A stretch of 64,000 nucleotides of DNA from Candidatus Hydrogenedentota bacterium (GTDB lineage Bacteria > Hydrogenedentota > Hydrogenedentia > Hydrogenedentales > SLHB01): positions 416,001 through 480,000 of the forward strand of contig CAVUWV010000008.1 in the NCBI GenBank assembly GCA_963745075.1, written 5' to 3'. Each line of letters starts with the position of its first letter. Positions within the stretch are counted from its first letter, which is position 1. The translations under genes were made by a program, and so were the position numbers. Below, piece after piece: positions 1 through 64,000 of the stretch. The notes beneath the pieces were generated by a model, which was not told the origin of the DNA, ran no database searches, and saw only the letters and a program-made list of their open reading frames with translations.

Positions 1-3585
<3,585 letters not shown>

Positions 3586-47062: not shown

Positions 47063-47425
47063 TCAGATGTTTCCTTTGGCCTGCTTCACCAGACGGTTGA
47101 TCCAGAGGTCGATGTAGTCGCCGCCGACTTCGGCGATAACATTGATGCCTTGGGTGCGGCCGAAGGTGACGGCGGCGTCGCGGGCGAGTTCACGGGCGCG
47201 GCGGCGTTCGGCGGAGGTGAGCTTGCCGTCTTCGCTGGCTTCTTTGATGGCGCGGACGTAGGTCTGGTAGGTCTGGTCGACGCCGGCTTCGAGGGCGGAT
47301 ATGGCCTGGGCGTAGCGACGCTCTTTGGCCCGCTGGTACCAGTCCCGGGATTTGAAGAAGGTCCAGGCGGCGCCGAAAACGGTGCCGAGAAGGGTGATGC
47401 TGGTATCGGAGACGAGAGATTCCAT
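47063..47425 (-). CDS. Putative holin (LL-H-like)
   Basis: One N-terminal TM segment followed by V..TYQTYV..IK..S.DGKLT..E; AAGGAG RBS; last gene of the structural cluster. Confidence 0.6.
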   Translation of the reverse strand: MESLVSDTSITLLGTVFGAAWTFFKSRDWYQRAKERRYAQAISALEAGVDQTYQTYVRAIKEASEDGKLTSAERRRARELARDAAVTFGRTQGINVIAEVGGDYIDLWINRLVKQAKGNI

Positions 47426-47449
47426 GAGGGGACTCCTTTGGTTGGTTTC

Positions 47450-47538
47450 ACTGGGAGCGCCATGCACCAGCGCGGCGAGTGCCGGGGAACACCTGCGGTA
47501 AGGACCAAGACGCCACGCTGGTGCATGGCGCTCCCAGT
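47450..47538. repeat. REP doublet, family B, second copy (inside the phage-like cluster)
   Basis: ACTGGGAGCGCCATGCACCAGCG and CGCTGGTGCATGGCGCTCCCAGT. Confidence 0.8.
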
Positions 47539-47594: not shown

Positions 47595-48116
47595 CTACAA
47601 GAAGGTTCGGGCGTCGATAATGTAGCCGTTGATGGCGTCGTCGGTGTTTTTGATGGCGGCCATGCCAGGGCGCACATAGAGGTGCGCGAGGGCGAGGGCA
47701 TTGCTCGACGGGCTCGGCGCGACGGGCGACGCGGCTTCGGCGCCGGGGACGATGCTGATATCCCAGGTTTCGAGACGGGCTTGCACGAGATCGATGCGGG
47801 GGTTCGTCGTGGGCGGCGTGACGTCGGGCGTGGCGGTCTCGGATTCGAGGCGGTACGGGAAGCGCCCGATAAAGGCGTAGCCAGGTTTCACGTTCACGGA
47901 CAGGCCGGGCACGTCCGCGGCGACAACTTTCAGATCGTCCGTCGCGGCTTTTCGAATGACGCCGTCGCCGCCGCCCCAGGCCTGGCTGAGCAGGAAGTGG
48001 ATGAGTTCGAGGGCGGCCTCGATGCGGTCGTCCCAGGAGTTGAGTTTGGACGAGGCGACGGGGCGTTCCGCAAAGGTCCAGGAGGTCTTGGTGTAGGCTT
48101 TGCCTTTGATCGCCAT
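47595..48116 (-). CDS. Phage baseplate / minor tail protein-like
   Basis: LSVNVKPGYAFI, TNPRIDLV, ASPVAP...LALAHLYV and IIDARTF resemble a common siphophage baseplate/fibre-anchor domain; it follows Tal. Confidence 0.6.
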   Translation of the reverse strand: MAIKGKAYTKTSWTFAERPVASSKLNSWDDRIEAALELIHFLLSQAWGGGDGVIRKAATDDLKVVAADVPGLSVNVKPGYAFIGRFPYRLESETATPDVTPPTTNPRIDLVQARLETWDISIVPGAEAASPVAPSPSSNALALAHLYVRPGMAAIKNTDDAINGYIIDARTFL

Positions 48117-48144
48117 TTCGAGAATCCTTTCGGGCTGGGGTTTT

Positions 48145-49899
48145 CTAGTCGAGGTGGTAGCCGGCGTCGAGACCGACGTCGTCCGCATCGAGGCGGAACT
48201 GGAAGAGCTCCGTTTCGCGGGGTTGGCTGCGGACGGTGAAACTGAGCGGATTGGCGACGGAACGCAGCGGGGACGTAAATCGGATACGGGTTTGGAGGTG
48301 CGCGCCGGAGAAACGGTGGACGATTTCCTTCACGCGGGCGACAAGCACGCCGGGAAACCGGTCGCCCCATTCACCGTCGACTTCGCGGTCGAGACGGCGG
48401 AGGACGCCACCGCGAAGTTCGACGAGATCGCCTACGGACACGTCCGCAAACCCGTCGTAGTATTCCACTTCGTCGGAGGGCTCGGGATAGGCGATGTCGT
48501 CGAGGAGGCCTTCGACGAGTTTGTCGGCGTCCTCTTCGAGGGAGATGCCGAAGTGATCGAGCGAGCGGGCGTAGAACCCGAAAGCGTCGATACTCGCGCC
48601 GGCCCAATAGGTCTTTTCCAGTGTGCCGGTGATGGGATTGCCATCGAAGTAAACGGCGTTGATGAGGTCGCTTGAATCGGACCCGAGTGTCACGCCCATG
48701 CGCGTGGGATCGAAGAACCAAACGCGGTCGGGGCGTGTAGCTCGGCGAAAGCTTACGCGTAGCTCCGGATCGATGGACCAGATGAAACCACCCGCGGCAT
48801 AGGCCAGCGCGGTAAGTGCTTCGAGGACGCCGCCGGACGCGTCGAAGTTCACGAGAGAGACGCTCGTGCTGTCGACGGAGTCTGCCTTTGGGCCGGGGTA
48901 TGAGAAGAAATCCTTCAGCTCCATCTCAGGCACAAGGCATTGGCCGTCTTCGTAGAGATAGACTTCGGCGAGTCCCTGTTCAACGAGGGCGGCGTTGAAA
49001 CATTCGCCGCCGCCGAAGACGAGGCCGAGGTAGCGACCGTAGACGTCAACGCGATCGTCGAATGCGCCGCTTGCGTCGCGATGGGGGTTTAGTTCGATGA
49101 AGTCGATACCCTTGGTGTCGATGAGCGACTGCAACGCGGCCGTCGCGGCGTCCGCCTTCAATTTGTAGCCGCTCGCGTTGTATCGGTCGGTGGTCCAGTC
49201 TGCGACTTCTGGGTGGCGCGCGATGGCGTGCGAGTTCTTGTCGGTCTCCTCGGCATCGATGAGCATGAGGCGGACGTCGGGCCAAGGCGCGCCATCCACT
49301 TCGATGCCCGCGATAGTGTCGCCGTCTTTGGCGTAGGCATTGGTGAGGTCGAGTCGATCGCTGCCGACCCATTGGCCCGCGTCGATACCACCGTTTGCGA
49401 GTTCGTTCGTGTCCGTCTTACGTGCGAGGAATTTCTGGTATTCGCGCGCGGCGCCGTCAGGGTAGGCCGTGTGGGCGACGGTGTAGTGAATTGCACCCGG
49501 CGCGCTTTGGACGGCGTCTTTGACGATGGCGTCGATGCTGCGGTTCGTGTAGACGCGGGAAATCGTGGTGTTGCCGTCAAGGGGATCGCGCGCGGCGGCG
49601 AACTCGATGATTTCGTGGAACGTGACGTATTTCTCGAGAATGAGTTTGCGCGTTTCGCTCCATTGCGGTGCGATCTCCGTGACGGGCGCTTCGCAGAAAA
49701 GTTGCCCGTCGATCAACACACGCACCCGATAGCCGTGGCCAAGATCGGTGATACCTTCGGGCAACAGGCCGCGTACCCGATCCGCATCGCCGGGCCAGGT
49801 ACGGATTGCTTCCAGTAACGGCACGTCCGCGTAGCGCCCGATGCGCCGGCCTTCCGTGTCATAGATTTCGATAGCGTAGTTCACGTCAATCACCACCAC
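48145..49899 (-). CDS. Tal/baseplate-hub-like tail protein with an inserted thermonuclease (SNase) domain
   Basis: Directly follows Dit. Hub-like N- and C-terminal parts (DLINAVYFDG, SIDAFG, VSVGDLV) surround an internal DGDT / VRLMLIDAEE / DVYGRYLGLV / NAALVEQGLA. Confidence 0.7.
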   Translation of the reverse strand: MVVIDVNYAIEIYDTEGRRIGRYADVPLLEAIRTWPGDADRVRGLLPEGITDLGHGYRVRVLIDGQLFCEAPVTEIAPQWSETRKLILEKYVTFHEIIEFAAARDPLDGNTTISRVYTNRSIDAIVKDAVQSAPGAIHYTVAHTAYPDGAAREYQKFLARKTDTNELANGGIDAGQWVGSDRLDLTNAYAKDGDTIAGIEVDGAPWPDVRLMLIDAEETDKNSHAIARHPEVADWTTDRYNASGYKLKADAATAALQSLIDTKGIDFIELNPHRDASGAFDDRVDVYGRYLGLVFGGGECFNAALVEQGLAEVYLYEDGQCLVPEMELKDFFSYPGPKADSVDSTSVSLVNFDASGGVLEALTALAYAAGGFIWSIDPELRVSFRRATRPDRVWFFDPTRMGVTLGSDSSDLINAVYFDGNPITGTLEKTYWAGASIDAFGFYARSLDHFGISLEEDADKLVEGLLDDIAYPEPSDEVEYYDGFADVSVGDLVELRGGVLRRLDREVDGEWGDRFPGVLVARVKEIVHRFSGAHLQTRIRFTSPLRSVANPLSFTVRSQPRETELFQFRLDADDVGLDAGYHLD

Positions 49900-50576
49900 C
49901 GGTCGTGGACCGACACGACCGCTTCAGCGTCGTGGGAGCTGGCAGGATCGTCGGTGTAGGTTAGCGTCGTCCCTTCCGGTGCGATCTCGGGGAAAAGACC
50001 GGTCGTGTAGGGCGTCACGTCGACGCCGTCGAGGGTGACGCGGGAATTCGGCCCGTCAAAGATCAGCACGGACGCGGAGGACACAACGCCATTGTAAAGG
50101 ATGCTCCAGATACCATCAGAAATGGACGGATTGATGAGATTGTCGTTTGCGGTGATTGTGATTGCCGGTACGGAGGTGTAGTTACCGCCGGCGGATACGA
50201 CAAGGGTCGCGCCGGAGGCGTTGATGGGCCAGTTCTCGCTCGTGGGATCGACGGACCGCTCGTAAGGATCGCGGGCGTGGAGTTTCAATGTGAAGTTGCC
50301 GACGCGGGCGTCGTTCGCGATCTCGCGTTTGAACTCCGTGCGGCGGACGTAGAGTTCGCGGTCCGTGCGAATGGAGAGCGCGGCGGTGTAATCCTCCGAG
50401 GACACCGCGTCGAGAATGGCGTCGAGTTTGGTTTCGATAGCGGCGGCGGTGGACTCGCCCACGATGAGTCCGGCGATCTCGATGACGCGCTCGCGGCGGC
50501 CGCCGACTTCCTGGTGCGTCTCACGGACCGTGGTGTGGGCGGGATCGAAGGTGTGGTTTCCCAGCGTAATGGCCAC
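49890..50576 (-). CDS. Distal tail protein (Dit)-like
   Basis: F.LKL.ARDPYE.S, G.FPEIAPEG and C-terminal DRWW fit the siphophage Dit pattern; overlaps the Tal start. Confidence 0.68.
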   Translation of the reverse strand: MAITLGNHTFDPAHTTVRETHQEVGGRRERVIEIAGLIVGESTAAAIETKLDAILDAVSSEDYTAALSIRTDRELYVRRTEFKREIANDARVGNFTLKLHARDPYERSVDPTSENWPINASGATLVVSAGGNYTSVPAITITANDNLINPSISDGIWSILYNGVVSSASVLIFDGPNSRVTLDGVDVTPYTTGLFPEIAPEGTTLTYTDDPASSHDAEAVVSVHDRWW

Positions 50577-50579
50577 GGG

Positions 50580-50996
50580 TTAGTCCTCCCCGAGGATGGG
50601 GGTCGAACCGGTCGCGTCGGCGGGGATGCGGGCAGGGGCATCGCGGAGGTACGGTTCGAGGACGTACCACGCCTGCTTTTCCGTGAGGGCCGCGACGCCG
50701 GTCAGTGCGCGGAAGCGGTTGCCATCCTCGACGCGTTGGCCGCCGATAGCGACGTTTTTCTGGGCGAAGGCGTCGTGGGCCGCAAGGGACCGGAAGAGGT
50801 ACGCACCCGCGAGCAGAGTTTCGCCGGAGACGAGACCGGGGTCGGGGGATTCGGTGTCGACGTCGGGATCGATCTGGCGGAGGATGTTGCGGTGCGCGTC
50901 GTCGATGGCGGCGACGACGAGGTCCTGGGGGACGGCGACGGTGTCGTTGAGCTGGAATTTGAGGCGGACATCGGCTTCGGTGGTGAAGTTGGGCAT
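50580..50996 (-). CDS. Head-tail adaptor (gp6/gp36-like)
   Basis: 138 aa directly downstream of the capsid gene; FTT.ADVR, I.DAH..I and A...LEPYL helical adaptor pattern; GGAGG RBS. Confidence 0.62.
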   Translation of the reverse strand: MPNFTTEADVRLKFQLNDTVAVPQDLVVAAIDDAHRNILRQIDPDVDTESPDPGLVSGETLLAGAYLFRSLAAHDAFAQKNVAIGGQRVEDGNRFRALTGVAALTEKQAWYVLEPYLRDAPARIPADATGSTPILGED

Positions 50997-51177
50997 GGGC
51001 GGAACCTCCGGGAAGAAGAACACGGACCTATACGGACAAGCACGGACGGACACGGACAAAGCAACCGAGGCCACCGCACGAGCCGCGCGAACAGCAGCTT
51101 TTGGCGGGGCCTGGGGCCTCTTGTGGCGTAGAGGCCCCAGGCGTGGGCCGGATGGGCGGGTCCGGCGAGGAGATTCG

Positions 51178-52227
51178 TTAGGACCAGTCGCTTTGGACGA
51201 CGACGCGGGCGTCTTTGTAGATCACGGCGAAGTCGGTGACGACCGTGAGGTAGGTGCGGTCCCACTGCTGGTTGATGAGTTTGTCGTTCTCGACGAGCAG
51301 GTCCTGTTCGGTGAGTTTCTGGACCGTGTATCCGGCGTCGAGGATAGTCAGTTTATCCGTGGGCTGATCGACCATGGGAACGAGACGCACGCCGAGTGGA
51401 GTGGGCAGGTTGCCGGTCTTCGCGAAGTCGAAGAGGACGGCATCCTTGAGTTCGGTGAGTCCCAGGATGGTTTGCGCCAGCGCCGAGTTTGCCAGCATGT
51501 GGGTGGGCGTGAAGTACTTGTCCAGCGTCAGGGTCATGAACCCTTTGACGATGTCCGCGTAGGTCCACGTGTCGGCGGTGGCGGTGTTCACCGTGGGCGC
51601 CGCCGTGCCGCTGCCAGACGAATCGCCGCTGACAAGGACCGTGGCCAGGCGCGCATCGAGATTGCGACCGAGGCGTTCGCCGATGCGTTGCAAGTGGACG
51701 CGGAGCATGTCGACGGACATGCGGCGGATGACTTCGTAGGACGCGACCACGCCGCGGCCTTTCTTGTCGAGGCGGACGATGCGGTCGCCGTAGGTGATCT
51801 CCGATTCAGGGATCGCGGCGCCTTCGGCGACGGTGCGCAGTTCCTCTTCGGCGGACGCTTCGTCGACGTAGGGCACATCGTAGGCCGTGCTCGATACGGG
51901 TTCGTCGCGGATGATGAGTTCGGGGTAGACCGGCTTGCGCTTGAGACCGGAAACGACGGCCTCCCGCACGATGTCGGGAAAGAGCCATTTCGCGTTGGGG
52001 TCGCTCTGGAAGAAGCGGTCGACGGTAATGCGGTGTACGTCGACGCCGAATTCCTGGGCGCAGTAGTCGGTAAGGGTGGTGCCGAGGGCGCGAAAGTACT
52101 GCCCGTGGGTCAGGCCGAGGGCGCCGAGGGTGTCGTACAAGTCGTGGCCGCGCGTCTGGCGGAGCCGGTCGGGCTCCTGGCTCAGGAACGCGAGGCGTTC
52201 TTTGACGTTGTCGTCGCGGTAGGGCAT
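51178..52227 (-). CDS. Major capsid protein (HK97 fold)
   Basis: LFPDIV, VAEGAAIPE, K.GRGVVASYEVIRR, TPLGV; 349 aa; capsid position in the cluster. Confidence 0.88.
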   Translation of the reverse strand: MPYRDDNVKERLAFLSQEPDRLRQTRGHDLYDTLGALGLTHGQYFRALGTTLTDYCAQEFGVDVHRITVDRFFQSDPNAKWLFPDIVREAVVSGLKRKPVYPELIIRDEPVSSTAYDVPYVDEASAEEELRTVAEGAAIPESEITYGDRIVRLDKKGRGVVASYEVIRRMSVDMLRVHLQRIGERLGRNLDARLATVLVSGDSSGSGTAAPTVNTATADTWTYADIVKGFMTLTLDKYFTPTHMLANSALAQTILGLTELKDAVLFDFAKTGNLPTPLGVRLVPMVDQPTDKLTILDAGYTVQKLTEQDLLVENDKLINQQWDRTYLTVVTDFAVIYKDARVVVQSDWS

Positions 52228-52336: not shown

Positions 52337-52717
52337 TTAGAGCAGAACGTGAACCTTGCTTGCTCCGCTGTCGACTTTGAGGTTGCGGCCGACGCCGTTG
52401 CCGGAGGCGGGGGCTTTGACGGTGCCGTCGGTGGCGGAGGCGAGAATGCCGGCCTCGCCGTCGACGGTGGGCGCGGAGCCCGTGTAGGTGAAGATGCAAA
52501 TGCCACGGACCTTGATGGGAATTGCGACGCCGTTGTCGTCGGCGTCCGCCAGGGCTTGGCCGAAGACCACGTCTTCGTCGTCGGTGGCATTGTTCACTTC
52601 ATAGGCGCCGGTGAGCTTGACGGCGTCGCCCGCGGCGATGTCGATGGTGCCGCTGGCGGGGGTTTTGCAGGTGATGACGAGTTCGGTGACCGAACCGCCT
52701 ACGTCTCCGTATGCCAT
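52337..52717 (-). CDS. Capsid decoration/cement protein (DUF2190-like)
   Basis: 126 aa, Gly/Ala-rich; IAAGDAVK, FGQALADA, V.VRG; adjacent to the capsid gene. Confidence 0.65.
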   Translation of the reverse strand: MAYGDVGGSVTELVITCKTPASGTIDIAAGDAVKLTGAYEVNNATDDEDVVFGQALADADDNGVAIPIKVRGICIFTYTGSAPTVDGEAGILASATDGTVKAPASGNGVGRNLKVDSGASKVHVLL

Positions 52718-52960: not shown

Positions 52961-53656
52961 TTACGCCGGGTCGCGGAGGATCGTCATGGCGCGATTTTGG
53001 TCTCGCGTGGTCTGTGTCAGCGGCTCCGGTCTGGATGTGGGGCTCGGGGGATATTTGTTGTCGAACCGGATCTCGTAGGCGCGGAGGTGGACATGGATCT
53101 CGTCGAGGGAGAGTTGGGCGAGGGTCCGGCGCCAGAGCGTGTCGTCGAAGGACGGGCCGTCGAGTTCGCGGCCGAGCCCGCAGAAACGTTCGATGGCGCG
53201 GGTGCGGGCGGTTGCGCCGTCGGTGATGAGGCGAGCGGCGTCGTGTTCGCGCGCGCCGGCTTCGTCCAGGGCGTGGCGGATGTCCCGGACGGCGGCGGGG
53301 GGCAGGCCGTCGACGCGGCGTGCGCGGATGACGCGGGATTCGCCGTTGCTGTGGAGGACAAGGGCGCGCTCGTCTTCGGTGGATTCAAGCCAGTGGTAGG
53401 TGCCTGCTTCGAGGCAAATGGCGTCGCCGGGCTGGTTGAGCCAGCGGAGATCGTGGGGCGCTTTTTCGGTCGCCCAGGGCTTGCCGTCGAGAGCGGTGGC
53501 GTCGATGCGCCAGCCGGTGAGGCAATCGCCGAATTCGAGGCGCAGATCGAGGTGGGCGCCGATGGCGTCGCGGTGGCGGTGGATGACGTAGCGGCCGTCT
53601 GGGGTGGTTGGGCGCAACGTGGAATCGGGGGTTTCGGTGGTGAGGGTCCAGTACAT
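52961..53656 (-). CDS. LigD 3'-phosphoesterase-like domain fused to a helical, scaffold-like C-terminus
   Basis: RYVIHRH..., HLDLRLE, W, APHD and GTY match the LigD PE pattern; sits in the scaffold position; AAGGA RBS before the ATG at 53656. Confidence 0.6.
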   Translation of the reverse strand: MYWTLTTETPDSTLRPTTPDGRYVIHRHRDAIGAHLDLRLEFGDCLTGWRIDATALDGKPWATEKAPHDLRWLNQPGDAICLEAGTYHWLESTEDERALVLHSNGESRVIRARRVDGLPPAAVRDIRHALDEAGAREHDAARLITDGATARTRAIERFCGLGRELDGPSFDDTLWRRTLAQLSLDEIHVHLRAYEIRFDNKYPPSPTSRPEPLTQTTRDQNRAMTILRDPA

Positions 53657-53739
53657 TGAGGGGGTCCTTTTTTGGGTGGGCGGCGGCAGAAACACGGACT
53701 TACACGGACAGCCACGGACGGGCACGGACCAATGCGGCT

Positions 53740-53952
53740 TTACGCGTGAAGCAGCTGCTGGCCGAGGGAAATGACCACCGCGACGAGGTTGGCGACAAGG
53801 AGGAGGACGCCTCGTGCGAGCGTGGTTTCGAGGTCTTGGACCCGCGCTTTCAGTTCCTTGATGTCTTCGGCGAGGTTGTTGACCTGAATCTCGTAGACGA
53901 TGCCGTATGGGCAGCGTTCCGTGTCGCAGGGGGCGGTTGCGTTGCTATTCAT
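53740..53952 (-). CDS. Small coiled-coil protein with a C-terminal TM segment (XhlA/BhlA-like holin candidate)
   Basis: 70 aa: heptad LAEDIKELKARVQDLE followed by hydrophobic GVLLLVANLVAVVISL; its start overlaps the protease stop. Confidence 0.5.
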   Translation of the reverse strand: MNSNATAPCDTERCPYGIVYEIQVNNLAEDIKELKARVQDLETTLARGVLLLVANLVAVVISLGQQLLHA

Positions 53953-54644
53953 GGGACCACCATTTGCGGGGGCAAAGTTCGATGGGTTCGTGGTAGGCGT
54001 CGCGGGCGACTTTGAGAGCTTGGTCGAGGGGGAGCGTGCGTTTGGCGCGTTCGGCTGCGACGAAGCCGGTGCCCTGCGAACCGGAGGAGACGACGGAGCC
54101 TTCAATAACTTCGAGGACGTTGCGCATGATGTAGTGGCATTGGTGATCTCCGTAGGTCTTGCCGGGGACGTGGTCGCAAGTGCGGAGGTCTTTTGCGCAG
54201 ATCGAGCATTCGGGTGTTTCGAAGGAAAAGCCGATGGAGGTCTCGCGATACACGCCGCCCTCGATGTTCAGGATGAAGTCGGCGTTGTCCTGGGTGCGGA
54301 GCACGTAGAACGTCGGGCCGCACGGCGACGCGCGCGCCGTCGTGATGGAGCTGGGATCGGAAGAAAGTGCCGCGCGGCAACGAACCGCGCAGATCGTGGC
54401 GCTCCATCAGCGGACGGCCTGGGGTCATGGCGCTGATCGTTTCGAGTTCGTCGTCGGGGAAGCGGCTGTGGTGCCGGTCGATCTGGTTGTGGCAGAGGTC
54501 GAGGGTGAAGACCGCGAACTCGTGCGGTTCGAGGGGGCGCAGGGCGAAGCGGTTGACCTCAGCGGCGCTGCTGTCGTCATCGGCGCGGGCGCGGACGGCG
54601 ATGAGGGCGCCTTCGCGGCGGAATACAAAGGGATCGAGATCCAT
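53945..54644 (-). CDS. Prohead (capsid maturation) protease, 1-nt frameshift near 54310
   Basis: NQIDRHHSRF, ERHD (His), ETSIGF (Ser), CSIC..C.H Zn motif, EGSVV; located between portal and capsid. Confidence 0.75.
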
Positions 54645-54681
54645 GGCGGTGCTCCGTGTTGTTGTCGGGTAGTCACTGACC

Positions 54682-54858
54682 GGAAAAACAGGGACAGACA
54701 CCAATTGCCGTTGGAAGTTTGGGTGAGGCAAACGTTCTTGGGGCAATTTGAGTCAGTCCCCATTTTTCCAAGGGGCATACATGGGGACACCTGTCGGCCC
54801 GGTGGACATATACTTATTGATTATTCAGGGGCTAACGAGTGCCCCCATGTATGACCCT
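54682..54858. repeat. Two adjacent inverted-repeat elements
   Basis: GGAAAAACAGGGACAGACACCAATTGCC / GGCAATTTGAGTCAGTCCCCATTTTTCC, and AGGGGCATACATGGGGACAC / GTGCCCCCATGTATGACCCT. Confidence 0.65.
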
Positions 54859-55064: not shown

Positions 55065-56324
55065 CTATCCGATGCCGAGGGTTTTGGCGGCTTCTTCGTG
55101 GGTGAGGAAACCGTTTTCGCGGAGTTGGACGGCGTTGGCGATCTCGCGCTGGCGGGCGGTGGCTTCTTTGAGCACGTCGACGGTGCGGTTGGCGCGCACA
55201 TGGACGCGGGCCTCGGCGTAACCCCACATGAGCGCGAGTTCGAAGTTGTAGAGCCGTTCGAGGATGCGTTTGACGCTGCGGTTGACGGCCTCAACGTGGC
55301 GGTTGATGATTTCGAACTGGGCGGTGCCGTAGGTTTCGGTGGTGCCGTAGTTGCGGCCGAGGAGGATCGGCATGAGGTGCATGCCGGTGATCACCTGTTC
55401 CTCGATGGCCTTGTGGTTGTCGTAAAAGATCTGCGCGTGTTGGTCGCCGCGAATGAGATTGACGCGCACGTTGTCGAAGGTGACGAAATTCTGATCCGCT
55501 TCGAGTCCGGACAAGCGATCCCGCAGCAGATCGAAGTTGCCCTGGATGCGTTCTTCATAGGCCTCGGCGGATTCGCCGCGGGCGCGTTCGTCGGCGGTGT
55601 ATTGGACGTGGAGTTTGGACCAGCCGGCGTTGTGGGTGGCTTTGGCCATATCTTCGAGGAGGCGCTGCTGGATCTTCACGACGAAGGGGATAGACCGCAG
55701 CATGGAGCGGCCGTAGGGATTGGTGCCGTCGCGATCGAGACCGACGTAGATGAACCGTTCGGGCGGCAAGGGGATGGCCTCGCCGTCGAGGATCTGGTAG
55801 GGCCGGAGAAGCCCGTCCTCACGGCGGAAGCGAACGGTCCAGACGTCGACGGGGAGGACGTCGAAGATGGATTCGCGGCTCTGAGAAAGCACGATCTCGA
55901 CCGCGGCGGCACCGTAGGTGAAGAGCGAGGTGTAAAACACATCGAGGAGACCGTCCATGCCGCGGTCGCCGGAATTCACGCGCCTGTCGAGTTCGTGGAG
56001 GAGGCGTTGCGCGCGGCGTTTGGCGGCGTCGGACGACGGGTTGAGGATCTCGATGTCGTAGCCGGTCTGGCAGAGGCGTTTCCAGGTCCAGACGGCGTCG
56101 GAGATGTCGGGGATGGCGTCGCGCAGGAAGCGGTAGACCTGGAGCATGCCGAAGGGCGTATCGTTGGGGAGGGCGACGAACTCGCGGGGAATGCCCTGAA
56201 AGGCGCGCTGGTCTTCGGCGAGGGACGCGGGGAACAGGGCGCCGCCGCGCTCGCGGGTGGTGAAGGTTTCGGCGCGGGGCGCGGGCTTTGGGGGGCGGCG
56301 GAGGCGTTGGAACCAGTGGAGCAT
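55065..56324 (-). CDS. Phage portal protein
   Basis: About 420 aa; SLFTYGAAAVEIV, VLPVD..TV, NPYGRSML, MPILLG, C-terminal G.LT.EEA...LG; first gene of the head module. Confidence 0.82.
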   Translation of the reverse strand: MLHWFQRLRRPPKPAPRAETFTTRERGGALFPASLAEDQRAFQGIPREFVALPNDTPFGMLQVYRFLRDAIPDISDAVWTWKRLCQTGYDIEILNPSSDAAKRRAQRLLHELDRRVNSGDRGMDGLLDVFYTSLFTYGAAAVEIVLSQSRESIFDVLPVDVWTVRFRREDGLLRPYQILDGEAIPLPPERFIYVGLDRDGTNPYGRSMLRSIPFVVKIQQRLLEDMAKATHNAGWSKLHVQYTADERARGESAEAYEERIQGNFDLLRDRLSGLEADQNFVTFDNVRVNLIRGDQHAQIFYDNHKAIEEQVITGMHLMPILLGRNYGTTETYGTAQFEIINRHVEAVNRSVKRILERLYNFELALMWGYAEARVHVRANRTVDVLKEATARQREIANAVQLRENGFLTHEEAAKTLGIG

Positions 56325-56595
56325 ATCGGGGTGATCCTCAGGTGTTGGTTTCATTGGTTAGGCACGGGGCGTTGCATGGAGAAGGCTGGAGACCGGAGTC
56401 CGGAGGCTGGAAGGGACAGAGGCGCAGCCAGGACATAGGTAACAGACTCGGACTGACACGGACGACCGAGACGGCCGCATGCTGGTGCTAGTGCTTGGGT
56501 AGGTGATGGGGTCGAAAAGATTTGGGAAATGGCTCATAATTAGAGGATTCCTTTGGGATATGACCGTGGAGGGCTGGATAGTGCGGTGGATTCGA

Positions 56596-59500
56596 ATGAC
56601 GTGGTGTTTGGTGGCGGCGGTTGGCGTAGCGCTGGCGGCGGTGGGCCAGGAGGGGAACGTCAAGGCGTGGGAAGGGGAAATCACCATTCCCACGTATCCC
56701 ATCTATGGCGCGGACGTGAATCCGAAGATTTACGAGCTGGAAGGGTCCATCGTCTACCCTTACACGATGCAAGACCATTTGACGACGATCAAGGAGGACC
56801 GGACGTACCGGGCGGTCTGCCTGGAAAACGAGTATCTGAAGGTGACGTGTTTGCCGCAGCTCGGGGGCCGCATCCATTCCGTGCTCGACAAGACGACCGG
56901 CGAGCAGATGTTTCACCTGAACCACGTGATCAAACCGGGGCTGATCGCCATGCGGGGGGCGTGGATCTCGGGCGGGATCGAATGGAACCGGGGACCGCAG
57001 GGACATACGGTGACGAGTTTCGCGCCGGTCAACGTCACGTCACGGCCGAACCCGGACGGGTCGGCGTCGCTGGTGATTGGGTATACGGAGGCGAATTTTC
57101 ACACGCGGTGGAACGTCACGCTGACGTTGCGGCCGGGCAAGGCCTATTTGGACGAAGCCATCCGCATTTACAACCCGACCGACGGCACGCACAGCTTTTA
57201 TTTCTGGAACAACACGGCGTTCCCGTGCGAGCCTGGGACGCGGTTTATCTATCCCATGACGCTGGGGACGGACCATGCGGGCACGACGTTCTTTCATTGG
57301 CCGATCGACAACGGACGCGATTTGACGTGGCTGAAGAACTACGATAAGCCCACATCGGTGTTCGCGTACGAGTGCGCCTTCGATTTCTTTGGCGCGTACG
57401 ACGTGGACCGCGATCGCGGAATCGTGCAGTACGGGAATCATGAAATCGTTACGGGCAAGAAGGCGTGGACTTGGGGGCAGTCGGGTGACGGGCTGGCGAG
57501 CCAGGCGGCGTTGACGGACGATGACGGTCCGTATATCGAGGTGCAAAGTGGGCCGTTGCGGACGCAAGCGGACTACGGACTGTTGGGGCCGCACGAAGAG
57601 ATTGCCTGGCGGGAGTGGTGGTATCCCGTGCACGGGTTGGGCGACGGGTTCGAGTACGCGACGCAGGACGCGGCGGTGCAGACCTACCGCAACGATGGCG
57701 ATCTCGAGGTGCGGGTGCTGACGACCGGCGTGTACGACGGCGCAAAATGCACGTTTTCGCGGGACGGCCAGACGATTGGCGCGAATGCGGTGGACCTGTC
57801 GCCCATGAAACCGGTGGTGATGAAGCAGGCAGGGGCAGCGGACCGACCGGTGCAGATTCGCGTCGAAAGCGCAGCCGGCGCGGTGCTCGCCGAGTACACG
57901 TCGCCGCTGCCGATTCCGGAGCGGACGCCGCCGGCGAAGACGGAAGCCGATCCGGTCGATACGGCAGAGGAAGCGTGGCTGGAAGGCGTCACTGCGGAGG
58001 AACGCATCCAACGCACCAACGCGCGGGCAGCCTACGAACGGGCGCTGACGTTTGACCCCGGATTCGTGCCGGCGTTGCGGTCGCTGGCCGTGCTGGATCT
58101 CGAGGCCGGATTGTACGACGACGCGGCGGAAGGACTGGAACAGGCACTGAAACGGAACCCGGAAGACGGGATGTCGTGGTATTACCTTGGCGTCGCGCGG
58201 CTGAAACAGGACCGGTTGGACGAAGCGGAGTCCTGCGGATACCGCGTAATCGACCAACTGGACGAGCGGTCGTTGGGATACGATCTGGTCGGGCGGGCCT
58301 TGATGCGGCAAGGAAAATACGCGGACGCCGTGCCTGCATTCAGGCAGGCGATGACGTTGAACCCGACGGATTCGCGCGCACGGGATCATTGGTTGACGGC
58401 ATTACACGGCGCGGGCGAACACCAACAATTGCTGGACGGGGTTGCCGCCGCGCACGCCGCGGATCCCTTGGACTTCGTGACCGGCGCGCTGGTTGCGCTG
58501 CAAGATCCGAGTTATTTGCCCGGTTTCATCGACGAGATGAAAGGGACGATGGGACCGTACCAGTCGGAGATGATCCGGTTGTCGCTCTATTTTGACGATT
58601 TGGGGTTGACCCGTGAGGCGTTTCAGTTGTTGGACGCGGCATACGCGAGATTCGCCCCGGCGGTACACCAGATTACCTACTATCCGGGAAAGCCTCCGGT
58701 GGACCTGCGGGATCGGCCGTTGCCCTGGTACGTGATGGCGTACTACGCGAGCAAGTTGAACTTGCAGAACGAGGAAACGCGCTGTCTGCGCAAATCACAA
58801 ACCGTCTACGGAAACTACGCCTTCCCGTCGCAACCAGTGTACGAGCGCATACTGAAACATGCGATCGAGAAGAATCCCGAGGATTCGCGGGCACATTTGT
58901 ATCTCGGCAACCTGTACGGGGGCCTTGGGCGCTTGGACGAGGCCAAAGCGGAATGGGAAGCGGCGGCGGCACTACCGGGCGCGCTCAGCGTCGCGTACCG
59001 GAATCTCGGTTTGTACGCGTGGAAGAAGGACGAGGACCTGTCGAAGGCGGAAAGACTGTACCAGCAGGCGATTGCGGCTTTCCCGGGGGATCAAACCTTA
59101 TACCGCGATGAGGCGAATATCCTGATCGCCGACAAAAAGCCGGACGAAGCGATTGCGGTCCTGGAAGGCATGCCGTTGAATCGGGCGCGGCGCGGTGACG
59201 TGACGGTATTGCTGGCGCGGACGTATAACGACGTGCACCGGTACGACGACACGATCGCGTTGCTGGACGACGCTTTCTTCTCGAACTGGGAGAACAACAG
59301 CCTATCATGGCGCGTGTGGTCACAGGCACATGTCGAGCGCGGCAAACAGCGGATGGACGCGGGTGACGCGAAATCCGCGCTGACGGATTTTGAAGCGGCG
59401 TTGACCTATCCCGAGAATCTCGGCGTGGGCCGTCCGGCGGACCCGGAAGAAGCGGAGGTCTTGTTCTGGAAGGGCAAGGCCTTGGCTGCGCTGAACCGGA

Positions 59501-59616
59501 TGGATGAAGCGAAGGCGACGTGGCAGTCCGGCGCGGGCGGCCACGCAGGCTCGGATACACAGAACGAGTATGTGAAGCGGTGCAAGGAGGCACTGGCGGC
59601 GGGCGCGCAGGCGTAG
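56596..59616 (+). CDS. DUF5107 domain and TPR repeat protein (start uncertain)
   Basis: LENEYLKV..LPQLGGRI, KPGLIAMRGAWISGGIEWN, GKKAWTWG, LTDDDGPYIEVQSG, followed by TPR repeats. Confidence 0.85.
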   Translation: MTWCLVAAVGVALAAVGQEGNVKAWEGEITIPTYPIYGADVNPKIYELEGSIVYPYTMQDHLTTIKEDRTYRAVCLENEYLKVTCLPQLGGRIHSVLDKTTGEQMFHLNHVIKPGLIAMRGAWISGGIEWNRGPQGHTVTSFAPVNVTSRPNPDGSASLVIGYTEANFHTRWNVTLTLRPGKAYLDEAIRIYNPTDGTHSFYFWNNTAFPCEPGTRFIYPMTLGTDHAGTTFFHWPIDNGRDLTWLKNYDKPTSVFAYECAFDFFGAYDVDRDRGIVQYGNHEIVTGKKAWTWGQSGDGLASQAALTDDDGPYIEVQSGPLRTQADYGLLGPHEEIAWREWWYPVHGLGDGFEYATQDAAVQTYRNDGDLEVRVLTTGVYDGAKCTFSRDGQTIGANAVDLSPMKPVVMKQAGAADRPVQIRVESAAGAVLAEYTSPLPIPERTPPAKTEADPVDTAEEAWLEGVTAEERIQRTNARAAYERALTFDPGFVPALRSLAVLDLEAGLYDDAAEGLEQALKRNPEDGMSWYYLGVARLKQDRLDEAESCGYRVIDQLDERSLGYDLVGRALMRQGKYADAVPAFRQAMTLNPTDSRARDHWLTALHGAGEHQQLLDGVAAAHAADPLDFVTGALVALQDPSYLPGFIDEMKGTMGPYQSEMIRLSLYFDDLGLTREAFQLLDAAYARFAPAVHQITYYPGKPPVDLRDRPLPWYVMAYYASKLNLQNEETRCLRKSQTVYGNYAFPSQPVYERILKHAIEKNPEDSRAHLYLGNLYGGLGRLDEAKAEWEAAAALPGALSVAYRNLGLYAWKKDEDLSKAERLYQQAIAAFPGDQTLYRDEANILIADKKPDEAIAVLEGMPLNRARRGDVTVLLARTYNDVHRYDDTIALLDDAFFSNWENNSLSWRVWSQAHVERGKQRMDAGDAKSALTDFEAALTYPENLGVGRPADPEEAEVLFWKGKALAALNRMDEAKATWQSGAGGHAGSDTQNEYVKRCKEALAAGAQA

Positions 59617-59760: not shown

Positions 59761-61854
59761 ATGATTGATACGAGAAGTTATTGGTGGTTTGGCGCGGCGA
59801 TCGCGCTGGCCGTAGTTGTGGTGTTGAGCGGCGGATGTTCCGGCGGTATATCGCTGAATGGCGCGACGCCCATTGACCTGAGTGCGCTCCCGCAGAAGCG
59901 GATCGAGATCGATCGGGACTGGCGGGACGTCCGCGTGGTTCCTGCCGGGGAACACGTGACGGATCTGGGAACGATCCCCGAGGGAGGCGCCGTACGGCTG
60001 GCTTTCTTCCCGAAAGGGATATCTCCGGAGTCGCCCTCGGTTGCGGTATTCGCCGGGGACACATTGGTGGAGCAACGGGCACCCGAAGATGCCGGGCACT
60101 GGAGCGATTGGCGGATCGATCTTGGGCCCTACAGCGGGCGGGATGTTTCGTGCAAGGTGGTGTTTTCCTCGAACTGCGACGTGTTTCTGGCGCATTGCGA
60201 ACTGGTTCCCCAGGCCGAGGCGCCGCCGAACGTGCTGGTGTTCTTGATCGACACACTGCGACCGGATCACCTGGGATGTTATGGGTACGATCGCGCGACG
60301 TCGCCGAACATCGACGCGTTGGCCGGGGACAGTCTGCGATTTGCGGAGATGATTTCGCAATCCTCGTGGACGCGGCCGGCGGTGGCATCCCTACTGACGA
60401 GCACTTACCCCTCCGTGCACGAAGCAAAGGATCGGTTGGATGTACTGCGCGCCGATTTGCCGACGCTGGCGGAGGTATTTCGCGATGCGGGATACGAGAC
60501 CCAGGGGTTCATGAGCAATCCGAACTGTGTTCCCGCGTGGGGGTTCGACCGGGGGTTCAATCGATTCATCGACATCGATTCGTACACGATCAAGCCGGGC
60601 AAGGACGAGGACACGGTGAACGCGGCACTCGCGGCGTTGGAGGAGGCCGCGGGCCGGCCGTGGTTCTTCTACATACACGTGGTGGGTCCGCATGAACCAT
60701 ATGAACCGCCGGTGCCATACGACGCGAAATTCACATCGGCGTCGGACGATGACCACGCCCGGGCCAAGGCGTTGTACGACGGTGAAATCGCGTTTACCGA
60801 CGTGCAGTTCGGACGCATCGTCGATACGTTGAAACGCTTGGGCATTTACGACAACACGTTGATCGTCGTGGTATCGGATCACGGCGAGGAATTCTGGGAA
60901 CACGGCGGGACCGGTCACGGGTCCACGCTGTTCGACGAGGAGATTCGCATTCCCTTTATCTTGAAACTGCCGCAGCAACAGGACGCGGGCAAGGCGGTGG
61001 ACGGGATATGCCAGATCATCGACGCGGGTCCGACGATTCTGGAGACGCTCGGTCTGACGATTCCGGCGTCGTTCCAGGGCACGACGTTGAGTGGGCTGGC
61101 CGCCGGGGAACCGCGCGCGCAACCGTATGCGTATTCGTCGTTGTTTTTTGACAAGTTCAGCGCGCACGGGGCCCGAAGCGAAGCGTTCAAGTATATCGAC
61201 GACGCCGCGCAGGACACGCGCGCGTGGTACGACCTCAATGCCGATCCCGGCGAGCAGCACCCCCTTGCCGATGCCCCTGACGGGCAGGCCGGGCTGGCGC
61301 GGCTCGCGTCGCAGATTGCCGCGAGCGGCAACGACGGTCTACACATTCTGGTGACGGGCAGTTTGGAGGAAAAACATACGATTGACGGTGTAGTCGAGGG
61401 CGAAGGGCTTGGGGCGTTCAGCCTGCGCTATCTTGCCGACAACGGTGAGGTGACGCGAACGGAGAAGGGGGTCGCGTTTCGGATTGTCACCAGCCCGGGA
61501 GAGAATGCTCCCTTCGACATTGTGAATTTCCATAAGGACAGCGCCGAACAGAACAACGCCGATGTGCGTATCGATGCGGATCCGGCGCAACCGTTGCGGA
61601 TTGCGATCGCGCTCGACGGGGTTCCGGCTCCGGCGGATATGGTGTTTGTGGGACCGAAGAAAATGCCGCGCGCGTTAAACGGCACGGAACTGCAGCCCAG
61701 TGAACTGGCCGCCGGTTCGGAAGGGTTCTTTCCCAGTGCGCTGCCGCGACGGTTGGCGGTCTACGTGTGGTACGCGCCCGGCGCCGATACGGTGTCGAAT
61801 GAGAACCTCGAGCCCGGCATGGCGGACGCGTTGAAGGCGTTGGGGTATTTGTAG
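59761..61854 (+). CDS. Sulfatase-like (alkaline phosphatase superfamily) exported protein
   Basis: NVLVFLIDTLRPDHLGCYGY, SSWTRPAVASL, PHEPY, YDGEI, SDHGEEF.EHG..GHG, C-terminal LKALGYL. Confidence 0.88.
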   Translation: MIDTRSYWWFGAAIALAVVVVLSGGCSGGISLNGATPIDLSALPQKRIEIDRDWRDVRVVPAGEHVTDLGTIPEGGAVRLAFFPKGISPESPSVAVFAGDTLVEQRAPEDAGHWSDWRIDLGPYSGRDVSCKVVFSSNCDVFLAHCELVPQAEAPPNVLVFLIDTLRPDHLGCYGYDRATSPNIDALAGDSLRFAEMISQSSWTRPAVASLLTSTYPSVHEAKDRLDVLRADLPTLAEVFRDAGYETQGFMSNPNCVPAWGFDRGFNRFIDIDSYTIKPGKDEDTVNAALAALEEAAGRPWFFYIHVVGPHEPYEPPVPYDAKFTSASDDDHARAKALYDGEIAFTDVQFGRIVDTLKRLGIYDNTLIVVVSDHGEEFWEHGGTGHGSTLFDEEIRIPFILKLPQQQDAGKAVDGICQIIDAGPTILETLGLTIPASFQGTTLSGLAAGEPRAQPYAYSSLFFDKFSAHGARSEAFKYIDDAAQDTRAWYDLNADPGEQHPLADAPDGQAGLARLASQIAASGNDGLHILVTGSLEEKHTIDGVVEGEGLGAFSLRYLADNGEVTRTEKGVAFRIVTSPGENAPFDIVNFHKDSAEQNNADVRIDADPAQPLRIAIALDGVPAPADMVFVGPKKMPRALNGTELQPSELAAGSEGFFPSALPRRLAVYVWYAPGADTVSNENLEPGMADALKALGYL

Positions 61855-61922: not shown

Positions 61923-64000
61923 ATGAGTTTCAGGAGGAACAAGAAATTCTATTTTGTGTTGGCGGTCGTTTTGGGCGTCGTGGCCGTGGTCTGTGCGTGG
62001 TGGTTTTACGCGGCATCCGGTCCGGAGGCGCCACCCGCGGCCACGTCCGCTTTTGCGCTTCGCGACGGGGCGATAAACGACGTTGAGTGGGAAGGCGACT
62101 GGCGTGAGGCCAGGATCGTGCCGGCGGGCAGCCACACCATCGATTTGGGCGCGATACCTGCCGGTGGCGCGCTGCGAATCGGGACTGCTCCGCGCCAGTT
62201 GTTCCAGCGGGCGCCGCACGTGTTTGTGCTGGCCGGGGATGTCGTGGTCACGAAATTTGACGTACGCGAGCCAAAGACATGGACCGACTATCGCGTCGCT
62301 CTCGCGGCCTACGGGGGGGATGGCGCACCCTGCCGGGTCGTAATTGTCTCGGACGTGGACGTGTATGTTTCGCATTGTGAACTGGTGCCCATTGCGTCCG
62401 GTCAACCCAATGTGGTCCTGTTTCTGGTAGACACCATGCGCCGCGATCATCTTGGATGCTATGGGTATGCGCGTGACACGTCACCGAACATGGATGGGCT
62501 GGCCGGGGACGGCGTTCGATTGAACGGCATGATATCGCAGTCGTCGTGGACGCGCCCGGCCGTGGCGTCATTGCTGACGAGCACCTATCCGTCGGTGCAT
62601 CGCGCGAACGATCGGGCGGATATCCTGCGCCAGGACTTGCCGACGGTGGCGGAGGCGTTTCGTGACGCGGGCTACGTCACAGAAGGATTCATGAGCAATC
62701 CCTCGTGCCTCCCTGCGTGGGGATTCGGCCGGGGATTCGGCCGCTATCTGGATATCGACTCCTACACGGTGAACCCGGGAAAGGATGCGGACGTGGTGGA
62801 TGCGGTCCTGGCGGCGCTGGACGACGTTGCCGGAAGGCCCTGGTTCTTCTACGTTCACGCGATCGGTCCCCATGACCCCTACGATCCGCCGGCGCCATAC
62901 GACCGGATGTTCACCACGGATACCGCGTCGCTTTCACAAGAGGAAGCAAACCATGCGAATGCCCGCGATCGCTATGATGGCGAGATTGCGTTCACGGACG
63001 CGCAGATCGGCCGTCTGATAGCGGCGTTGCGCGCGAAGGGGATGTACGATAACACGTGGTTCGTCGTTTTGTCCGACCATGGCGAGGAGTTCTGGGAACA
63101 CGGCGGCGAGGGGCATGGGACTACGTTGTACGACGAATTAATCCGGATTCCGTGCATCGTGAAGCCGCCGCATCCCGGGGAGAGCGGTGTCGTGGTGGAC
63201 GGAGTTTGCGAGATCGTGGACGTGGCCCCGACGTTGATCGATCGCACCGGGCTGACCATTCCGCCCACGTTTCAGGGGCATTCGCTGGCAGGGTTCCTGT
63301 CGGGCGGGACGCTTCCCGCGCATCTCGCCTATTCGTCCCTTTACCTCGAAAAACATAGCCAGTATGGCGCGCGCAGCGATGGTCTGAAATACATCAACAA
63401 CATCGCGGCGGGTTCTGAGTCCTGGTACGACTTGGCAGCCGACCCCGGGGAGCACGCGGCGCTTGCGGCGATGCCATCCGAGGGGGCGGCGCTGGTGCAG
63501 TACGCGTCGCGCATCGCGGCGAGTGGAAACGCGGGCTTGCACATTCTGGTTACGGGGAGTCTGCTGGAGGAGCACACGATCGAAGGGACGATAGCGGGTA
63601 AAGGGATGGGCGACATCAGCCTGCGCTATCTGGCGAACAACGGAGAGGTACATCGCACCGATGACGGCGTAACGTTCCGAATCACCACGAGTGTGGGTCA
63701 AGGTGCCGGGATCGGGTTGGCGGAATGGCATGAAATCGGCGCCGAACAAAACCATGCGAACGTGCACGTCGAAGCGAAGCCCGACGAACCGTTGCGGATT
63801 ACGGTGAATCTGGACGGTGCGCCGGCGCCGGAGTCGGCCGTGTTCGTGGGCCCCGCGATGACGCCACGGGCGTTGCAAGACACGGTGCTCGAGCCCGTGG
63901 AACTGGTTGCGGGATCGGAGCAGTTCGATCCGGTGGCGTTGCCGCGGCGGCTGGCCGTGTATGTATGGTATGTGCCGGGTCCGGAGACGGTCGCGGATGA
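61923..64000 (+). CDS. Second sulfatase-like paralog; runs off the window end and is absent from the ORF track
   Basis: Frame from ATG 61923 translated by hand at several points: N-terminal TM, NVVLFLVDTMRRDHLGCYGY, SSWTRPAVASL, SDHGEEFWEHG; collinear with the upstream gene. Confidence 0.87.
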   Translation, partial: MSFRRNKKFYFVLAVVLGVVAVVCAWWFYAASGPEAPPAATSAFALRDGAINDVEWEGDWREARIVPAGSHTIDLGAIPAGGALRIGTAPRQLFQRAPHVFVLAGDVVVTKFDVREPKTWTDYRVALAAYGGDGAPCRVVIVSDVDVYVSHCELVPIASGQPNVVLFLVDTMRRDHLGCYGYARDTSPNMDGLAGDGVRLNGMISQSSWTRPAVASLLTSTYPSVHRANDRADILRQDLPTVAEAFRDAGYVTEGFMSNPSCLPAWGFGRGFGRYLDIDSYTVNPGKDADVVDAVLAALDDVAGRPWFFYVHAIGPHDPYDPPAPYDRMFTTDTASLSQEEANHANARDRYDGEIAFTDAQIGRLIAALRAKGMYDNTWFVVLSDHGEEFWEHGGEGHGTTLYDELIRIPCIVKPPHPGESGVVVDGVCEIVDVAPTLIDRTGLTIPPTFQGHSLAGFLSGGTLPAHLAYSSLYLEKHSQYGARSDGLKYINNIAAGSESWYDLAADPGEHAALAAMPSEGAALVQYASRIAASGNAGLHILVTGSLLEEHTIEGTIAGKGMGDISLRYLANNGEVHRTDDGVTFRITTSVGQGAGIGLAEWHEIGAEQNHANVHVEAKPDEPLRITVNLDGAPAPESAVFVGPAMTPRALQDTVLEPVELVAGSEQFDPVALPRRLAVYVWYVPGPETVAD

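Follow-up and report, generated by a model that had tools for sequence, protein, structure and literature searches.

The DNA analysed here is a window of 64,000 nucleotides from a Candidatus Hydrogenedentota bacterium (GenBank assembly GCA_963745075.1, contig CAVUWV010000008.1, positions 416,001 to 480,000 of the forward strand; source genome designated G000). Its minus strand carries a phage-type cluster of approximately 9.3 kb with genes for, in this order, a portal protein, a protease-like protein, a protein resembling the phosphoesterase of LigD, a small structural protein, a capsid protein, an adaptor-like protein, a distal tail protein (Dit), a tail hub with a staphylococcal nuclease (SNase, thermonuclease) domain, a 197-aa protein and a small membrane protein. 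The hub gene, the main subject of this work, is located at 48145..49899 (-) and encodes a Tal/gp27/gp44-like protein of 584 aa. It is present as a single copy in G000, and its reading frame is intact in the assembly (open over 592 aa, no stop). The 5' end overlaps by 10 bases the open reading frame (ORF) directly upstream (228 aa, 49890..50576, -). The latter is Dit-like, as it matched phrog_33 (E 3.3e-12) and its profile (alignment A4) matched gp19.1 of SPP1 (PDB 2x8k_A, E 3.7e-4); the score of Pfam SPP1_Dit was 19.4 bits, under the cut-off of 25. A first-pass annotation of the sequence had described a 584-aa ORF that follows a Dit gene and contains four motifs in the order known from SNase; all four were found in the translation, and the two matches just given agree with the proposed identity of the upstream gene.

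A structural model of the hub was computed with AlphaFold (AF2) from an alignment of 30 homologues (A1), which also served for profile searches. The mean predicted local distance difference test (pLDDT) score was 88.2 and the predicted template modelling (TM) score 0.86; pLDDT values below 50 were restricted to residues 1-4 and 567-584. When the model was compared with the PDB by Foldseek, baseplate and tail hubs were retrieved at E 1e-11 to 1e-6, including those of extracellular contractile injection systems (eCIS) of Anabaena and Algoriphagus, Neisseria 3d37, Mu gp44 (1wru, 9ki1), T4 gp27, VgrG, T5 pb3 and 80alpha Tal. A second structural aligner returned Z scores of 20.6 for the HFTV1 tail protein, 15.3-16.7 for Mu gp44 and 14.3-14.4 for T4 gp27, each superposition covering about 290-320 residues spread across model residues 1-560. 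Hubs of the gp27/gp44 type consist of four domains with tube-like barrels. By the model, the 584-aa protein is a complete hub of this kind to which an SNase domain of about 165 residues has been added. The proposal that the regions flanking the nuclease form a gp27/gp44-like hub is thus borne out by a single-chain model (Z 14.3-20.6 to known hubs, among them also VgrG, eCIS hubs and tail-tip proteins of siphophages). At the C-terminus, residues 566-584 (window 48145-48204, -) form a strongly conserved peptide, FRLD...VGLD.GYHLD, with pLDDT below 50. This peptide is common even to distant relatives of 369 aa and 612 aa, and it may be a docking motif.

The SNase domain, delimited by Pfam and by structure, comprises residues ~174-340 (48880..49380, -) between the N- and C-terminal hub parts. 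Pfam SNase (PF00565) was the sole Pfam family found in the hub (27.8 bits, E 3.8e-6, curated cut-off 21), its match spanning residues 209-317 and only positions 2-80 of the 107 profile positions. The PHROG match was phrog_452, 'endonuclease' (E 3.4e-6). A phmmer comparison with PDB chains yielded 282 distinct sequences at E<=1, the best 60 of which were all staphylococcal nuclease (top E 1.6e-5); in the alignment, hub residues 189-237 are paired with chain residues 16-63 and hub residues 282-323 with chain residues 80-122. Model residues 174/176 to 320/340 were superposed on SNase with Z 11.9 and a root-mean-square deviation of 2.6-3.1 A over 112-129 of 129-137 residues at 24-27% identity, and in Foldseek SNase chains matched the hub model at E ~2e-6 with TM 0.63-0.67 on the target. 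The first-pass annotation had placed an SNase domain in the middle of the protein at 48950-49345, that is residues ~185-317, which lie inside the structural domain; the Pfam score above the cut-off and the superposition of the OB-type barrel both confirm its presence.

The Ca2+ ligands and catalytic residues of SNase are D21, D40, E43, R35 and R87. In the phmmer alignment, hub residues D192, D194, R210, D215, E218, D285, Y287 and R289 correspond to SNase positions 19, 21, 35, 40, 43, 83, 85 and 87, so that every one of the equivalents claimed at first pass (D19, D21, R35, D40, E43 and D83-Y85-R87) is present in the window protein. The hub domain and nuclease A of Staphylococcus aureus (PF00565) thus have a common fold, with metal- and phosphate-binding residues at aligned positions. 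They differ in context, nuclease A being a secreted stand-alone enzyme whereas the hub SNase is an internal domain of a 584-aa virion-type protein. In addition, the hub domain is about 25 residues longer after the E43 equivalent and has conserved residues of its own there (H224, H229, W235 and Y240).

To survey homologues for the insert, the A1 profile was compared with 1.84 billion representative proteins. This yielded 137 matches at E<=1e-3, only about ten of which were full-length members. Many relatives of approximately 360 aa matched profile positions ~335-500 alone, via their own residues ~125-300. By hhalign, residues 144-368 of one such protein, P0175 (369 aa), aligned to hub residues 355-584 only, the C-terminal FRLD...HLD peptide included; since this leaves no room for it, P0175 is without the SNase insert. 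A Pfam scan of 25 profile matches detected Laminin_G_3 at residues 139-297 of P0195 and fn3 at residues 145-225 of P0215, both preceding the C-terminal hub part. It also returned two weak matches each to 'Prophage_tail' and 'YQBQ', all under the cut-off, while 15 of the 25 proteins had no Pfam family at E<=0.01. The insert is present in close homologues. By these comparisons, the SNase domain is an insertion at a variable site, at which related hubs carry nothing, a Laminin_G_3 lectin or fn3. This fits the earlier remark that Tal proteins usually carry peptidoglycan hydrolase or carbohydrate-binding inserts.

Conservation of the nuclease residues was assessed in a set of 132 distinct sequences made up of the query, the top 120 database matches and 12 rows derived from genomes. 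In 128 of these, every one of the equivalents of D19, D21, R35, D40, E43, D83 and R87 was kept; at the Y85 equivalent, 93 sequences have Y and 35 have F. The insert is the best-conserved region of the protein, with a mean pairwise identity of 0.66 as compared with 0.49 for the N-terminal and 0.47 for the C-terminal hub part. In the alignment of 30 homologues the catalytic positions are invariant or nearly so, while nearby surface positions vary. The ratio of non-synonymous to synonymous substitution rates (dN/dS) between G000 and the same-genus genome G106, a pair with dS of ~1.2-1.5 and thus near saturation, was 0.071 for the hub gene and 0.054 for the insert; the values for the capsid, Dit and 126-aa genes of the cluster were 0.061, 0.134 and 0.165, respectively.

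The distribution of the cluster was determined in 135 genomes of Hydrogenedentota, one per species, 86 of which are of high quality. The hub was detected in 90 of the 135 genomes (59 of the 86), nearly always as one match, split matches being located on small contigs. The capsid gene was found in 115 genomes (78 of the 86) at 57-95% identity. The best 120 database matches of the hub were 565-603 aa long, 58-100% identical, and derived from Hydrogenedentes where named, save one bin labelled Bathyarchaeia. No match to the hub was obtained in 50,697 phage records and none was confirmed in IMG/VR (two peptide patterns, 53 candidates); the capsid had 13 matches in the phage records, all at <=33% identity, one of them in the phage contig MT835508.1.

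Cluster and host phylogenies were compared in 12 genomes that have both RpoB and the cluster genes; G113 and G095, with no whole RpoB piece or no portal, were omitted. The tree of portal, capsid and hub has six of nine internal branches in common with the RpoB tree, and the three conflicts concern RpoB branches with support 0, 48 and 82. Across the 70 genomes with full-length matches in both, hub identity to G000 was correlated with identity in the C-terminal part of RpoB (Spearman 0.55; 0.47 without the four same-genus genomes), with outliers in both directions; kin are not independent, and the coefficient is therefore descriptive only. The low dN/dS together with this congruence in trees and identities fits a chromosomal element that is kept by selection. 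Occasional transfer of the cluster may nevertheless have occurred.

Synteny was examined in 12 loci from distant hub-bearing genomes, one of which (L039) stops inside the cluster, and in seven hub-less loci, with the window proteins placed by tblastn (19 loci in total). Gene order from portal to hub was identical in 12 of 12 hub-bearing loci, the hub always following Dit. In the window and in these 12 loci, no tail tube or tape-measure gene is present in the cluster (the rest of the genome was not searched for them). Only a few bases separate the end of the adaptor-like ORF (50580) from the start of Dit (50576); adaptor-like, Dit and hub genes abut or overlap and are direct neighbours in the 12 loci as well, leaving no room for a tube or tape-measure gene. 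Likewise, no sheath, contractile parts or immunity-like gene was detected in the cluster, and no integrase, replication or lysogeny gene in its flanks in the window and the 12 loci. Beyond the cluster, nothing was common to more than a few of the loci. The hub is not part of an ordinary siphovirus-type tail but of a cluster without tube or tape-measure gene, which behaves as a vertically inherited chromosomal element.

Lineages without the hub were also found. In family f8 the hub was detected in none of ten genomes and the capsid in all ten; in family f3 the respective numbers were four and 20 of 23. Five of the hub-less loci (L063, L064, L067-L069) contain the portal, protease-like, 254-aa (phosphoesterase-like), 126-aa and capsid genes, followed directly by a conserved gene for a protein of ~150 aa and by the 134-aa gene; Dit, hub and 197-aa genes are missing from them, and a hidden Markov model search detected no homologue of the 164-aa adaptor-like protein. 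In the other two (L065 and L066, from G010 and G018) the 164-aa gene and Dit are present while the hub and the 197-aa gene are absent. As the two most distant genomes, which belong to other classes, have the SNase hub, absence of the hub seems likelier to reflect loss than gain. The two natural variants (adaptor and Dit without hub; neither Dit nor hub) offer ready comparisons for the contribution of the tip.

The head genes of the cluster were assigned as follows. The portal protein (429 aa, 55065..56354, -) matched phrog_3753 (E 4e-47) and Pfam Portal_Mu (39.2 bits), and the major capsid protein (349 aa, 51178..52227, -) matched phrog_3922 (E 3.6e-52) and Pfam Phage_capsid_4 (57.2 bits). Between them, a 126-aa virion structural protein (52337..52717, -; phrog_4588, E 1.4e-8) is conserved in 19 of 19 distant loci. 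The prohead-protease-like gene (phrog_16951; 53945..54746, -) is represented by two ORFs, 54102-54746 and 53945-54304, both of which match phrog_16951. It contains one extra base near 54308-54310, seen as a 1-base gap in a blastn comparison with G106, and forms a single frame in G106 and in 12 of 12 distant loci. A programmed frameshift was considered and rejected on these grounds, and because rpoB (window 1-3522 (+) and just upstream, G000:C8:415741-419522) is likewise broken, over three frames, in this assembly, which carries single-base indels. The split in the protease-like gene is thus probably an assembly indel. The 164-aa ORF downstream of the capsid gene (50580..51074, -) is a probable head-tail adaptor that occurs in 12 of 12 distant loci, with homologues aligning from about residue 27. 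No match was found in Pfam or PHROG; the sole functional lead is an Atlas cluster with Phage_connect_1 on 30% of its members (score 0.93).

The 254-aa protein encoded between the protease-like and 126-aa genes (52961..53725, -) resembles LigD-type 3'-phosphoesterases. Its profile (alignment A2, 11 members) matched the archaeal enzymes 3p43_A (E 1e-7) and 3p4h_A (E 3.7e-6) in the PDB and, weakly, the phosphoesterase of Pseudomonas LigD (3n9b, 0.018). An AF2 model (pLDDT 81.9) displays an N-terminal barrel (residues 25-138) and a helical C-terminal half (residues 143-249). In Foldseek, ranks 1-5, i.e. five of the top six, were LigD phosphoesterase chains from four entries (E 2e-5 to 2e-4), with TM on the target of only 0.41-0.55. 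Pfam LigD_N was matched weakly, by nine of 11 family members at E<=1 (best 0.0011, under the cut-off). The motif H51..H58-x-D60-x-R62-x-E64 varies little or not at all. The protein thus has the barrel and the H..H-x-D-x-R-x-E motif in common with the phosphoesterases of P. aeruginosa (3n9b) and archaea (3p43, 3p4h); it differs from them in the position of its gene between protease and capsid genes, in its fused helical C-terminal half and in having no ligase or polymerase partner. An enzyme of the DNA-end-healing type is unusual within a head module. Cleavage of the SNase type leaves 3'-phosphates, which LigD-type phosphoesterases remove, suggesting that the protein may form a functional pair with the hub SNase. 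The gene occurs in 19 of 19 distant loci, including seven of seven hub-less ones, so the phosphoesterase-like protein does not depend on the SNase.

Searches for a large terminase subunit (TerL) with five Pfam families and phrog_2 gave no match in G000, and no TerL gene was found in or adjoining its cluster. In the phylum, PF03237 was detected in 27, PF03354 in 12 and phrog_2 in 96 of 135 genomes, many of the latter being weak P-loop matches. A TerL-like ORF of G106, which matched phrog_2 (E 1.7e-20) but no Pfam family, identified three copies in G000 by tblastn (C8:332009-333472, C24:454334-456054 and C1:371747-373487). Since these had been missed by the family searches, such searches under-detect TerL and the above tallies are lower bounds. 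Each copy lies in a short repeated unit, and those on C24 and C1 are beside a 490-aa ORF of no assigned family. Orthologues of the C8 copy, which lies 135 kb from the cluster, were found in 123 of 135 genomes, with identities of 57-81%. The TerL-like gene is ~2 kb upstream of the portal gene in G034 and closely follows the 134-aa gene in G063; judged from coordinates, it is ~1 kb upstream of the portal gene in G118. It also occurs in genomes without capsid or hub, e.g. G132 and G072. The idea of an element wholly without terminase was dropped in view of this divergent C8 gene and its orthologues; its product is a candidate for the packaging enzyme.

Downstream of the hub, a 197-aa ORF (47595..48188, -), whose product is probably ~173 aa from an ATG near 48116, matched phrog_9534 and others annotated 'head/virion structural protein' (E 1e-7 to 7e-3). 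Its Atlas matches are weak leads to BppU/Caudo_bapla_N, and its profile had no match in the PDB. The gene was present in 11 of 12 hub-bearing loci (absent from L031) and in none of seven hub-less loci. That it never occurs without the hub in the loci examined suggests that the 197-aa protein may bind the hub; it is possibly a tip or baseplate accessory. The last gene (47063..47467, -) encodes a 134-aa protein with one N-terminal hydrophobic helix and no Pfam or PHROG match. It occurs in nine of 12 hub-bearing and seven of seven hub-less loci, and its product is possibly holin-like. In hub-less and many hub-bearing loci it is preceded by a gene for a ~150-aa protein (L063:8940-9467, L067:8904-9365, L038:15749-16225, and others) with invariant motifs SxHL..GGIAVD and DGHVHAD. 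By these motifs alone, the protein has the look of a LAS/M15-type peptidase that would form a lysis pair with the 134-aa protein; it had no Pfam and no PDB sequence match. By tblastn, G000 has no copy of the ~150-aa gene, and none was found in the two same-genus loci examined (G106 and G107).

The flanks of the cluster encode a DUF5107/TPR protein, sulfatases, a melibiase-like enzyme, PEMT and a CPXCG protein, and they are not conserved among the distant loci. Upstream of the portal gene, 56503-59616 (+), 59761-61854 (+) and 61923-63998 (+) encode the DUF5107/TPR protein (1037 aa) and two sulfatases; the gene for the former is kept beside the portal gene within the genus. The GC content is 0.61-0.64 over the cluster, as in the rest of the window.

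It had been stated that no Tal-SNase fusion was known. This does not hold, as a gp27-like hub with an SNase-related domain is in print: Hardies et al. (2007, Virol J 4:97) describe that the BtI1 homologue of gp147, in the lineage of Bacillus phage 0305phi8-36, is a hub of the gp27 kind that carries an SNase-related domain at its N-terminus, the purpose of which is there stated to be unknown. That lineage and the present cluster are alike in the fusion of a gp27-like hub to an SNase-related domain; theirs is N-terminal on very large hubs of the myovirus type, whereas the domain described here is inserted internally in a small Tal-like hub and belongs to a tube-less cluster fixed in the chromosome. 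In our literature search this was the one relevant paper found on a tail- or baseplate-borne thermonuclease or SNase in phages or prophages. Nothing relevant was found on a capsid/portal cluster or on gene transfer agents (GTAs) in Hydrogenedentota, subscription journals being largely outside the coverage of the search. While the fusion as such is known, three features are new: the SNase is inserted internally in a Tal-like hub of small size, it is strongly conserved, and it belongs to a tube-less cluster that is conserved across Hydrogenedentota.

Compared with hubs of the gp27 family more widely (Mu gp44, 1wru/9ki1; T4 gp27, 1k28; 80alpha, 6v8i; T5 pb3; HFTV1, 9h4p; VgrG; eCIS), the protein has the common fold, and as in siphophages its gene follows a Dit-like gene. 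It differs by a fifth, enzymatic domain, by the conserved C-terminal HLD peptide, and by a setting in which there is no tape-measure, tube, sheath or spike gene. The GTA of Rhodobacter capsulatus (RcGTA; Alphaproteobacteria) is likewise a phage-derived head-tail cluster with Dit and hub; both occur in single copy and conserved order throughout a large clade, where they are passed on mostly by vertical descent and are subject to purifying selection. Unlike RcGTA, the present cluster has no tube, tape-measure or terminator gene, its terminase-like gene is unlinked in G000, it has additional phosphoesterase-like and nuclease domains, and it is known from genes alone.

Taken as a whole, the cluster is probably not an active prophage. 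It is fixed in Hydrogenedentota chromosomes, is inherited mostly vertically and is under purifying selection, as is typical of a GTA, the congruence with host phylogeny being partial. In the reading that we favour, with a probability of roughly 0.6, the 584-aa protein forms the hub at the tip of a domesticated, GTA-like or otherwise host-serving phage-derived particle and displays an active SNase that cuts nucleic acid outside the particle or on exit from it. The particle tip would be built on a trimeric Tal-like hub whose presumably Ca2+-dependent SNase is inserted in a loop that is empty or occupied by a sugar-binding module in related hubs. Since genes for tube and tape measure are missing from the cluster, the Dit ring and the hub would be located directly beneath the head-tail adaptor and make up a minimal tip. 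On it, three nuclease domains, apparently catalytically intact as judged from their residues, would be displayed, probably facing outward, and could cut extracellular DNA (eDNA) or RNA of a matrix or target surface, or DNA leaving the particle.

Several observations weigh against this reading. Four of the 132 homologues have altered catalytic positions: P0079 has R->H at the R87 equivalent, two loci have D->R at the D21 equivalent (one of them also E->S at the E43 equivalent), and one locus has D->N at the D21 equivalent together with D->E at the D40 equivalent. In addition, the distant relative P0145 (612 aa) keeps an SNase-like insert with DGRT in place of DGDT and with the other catalytic positions degenerate, from which it follows that the domain can persist without catalysis. 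Vertical descent is not clean, in that the correlation with RpoB is moderate and some genomes of other families are nearer to G000 in the hub than are genomes of the same family. Seven hub-negative genomes keep the head genes, which means that the particle does not always need a hub tip. Finally, the outward-facing position of the insert is an argument by analogy.

Other explanations differ from the favoured one in what the nuclease acts on or in what the particle is. The SNase might act on the particle's own cargo DNA at the portal or tip during filling or exit, with the LigD-type phosphoesterase turning 3'-phosphate ends into 3'-OH for the recipient. The complementary chemistry of the two enzymes speaks for this, as do the presence of the phosphoesterase-like gene in all 19 distant loci with its invariant motif, and the position close to the portal channel that a hub would take up without a tube. 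Yet the gene is also kept in all seven hub-less loci, the LigD_N match is under the cut-off, and surface-binding modules at the insert site of relatives argue for an outward-facing position; we thus consider cargo processing unlikely. Alternatively, the hub could be the Tal of an ordinary prophage, perhaps a decaying one, that is common in the phylum, the nuclease being an infection tool, e.g. for crossing an eDNA-rich matrix. All cluster genes are of phage type, hub identity does not strictly track host relatedness, and a true phage contig (MT835508.1) has a related head module, in which the small terminase subunit and TerL genes precede the portal (phrog_30703/3753), phrog_16951 and capsid (phrog_3922) genes. 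This origin is nevertheless rather improbable: there is one copy per genome, in an order kept in 12 of 12 loci that span the phylum; the tree is largely congruent with that of RpoB, and dN/dS of four genes is ~0.06-0.17; the flanks are not conserved and, in the window, contain no integrase, replication or lysogeny gene; and two viral collections yielded no relative of a hub whose companion capsid is 57-95% identical phylum-wide.

As to the insert itself, it could be a non-catalytic nucleic-acid binder or structural module (an eDNA adhesin or a scaffold) with the look of an SNase. SNase-like domains that only bind exist, as in Tudor-SN, and the loss of catalytic residues in some members, D->R at the D21 equivalent recurring in two Hydrogenedentota loci and in the divergent P0145, points the same way. 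With all seven positions kept in 128 of 132 sequences and nearly invariant amid a variable surface, and with the insert better conserved than the surrounding scaffold, this explanation is quite improbable. The least probable is a killing device in which the nuclease would be a toxin delivered into the envelope or cytoplasm of a competitor, in the manner of nuclease-tipped VgrG spikes. The fold is common to VgrG and eCIS hubs, and nuclease effectors on such spikes are known; but the cluster is without sheath, contractile parts or immunity-like gene, the domain is internal to the hub rather than C-terminal cargo, and capsid and portal would be superfluous for an injector.

For the domesticated, nuclease-displaying particle that we favour, a wider form may tentatively be proposed, although we regard it as doubtful: a phylum-wide particle with capsid and portal, a tube-less tip and an unlinked terminase, in which SNase, producing 3'-phosphates, and phosphoesterase would process transferred DNA. 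This would be a new GTA-like design, and some lineages would since have become tip-less. To our knowledge, the function of hub-borne SNase domains, noticed since 2007, has never been tested by anyone. The question why there should be a nuclease at the tip of a virion can readily be approached with the hub described here: it is small (584 aa), confidently predicted and represented by over 130 natural variants, and there are lineages in which catalytic residues have changed or the whole hub has been lost. Beyond the hub itself, a phage-derived cluster that is under purifying selection across an uncultured phylum and has DNA-end enzymes in its structural operon is a candidate for a new domesticated particle, which may matter more than the hub.

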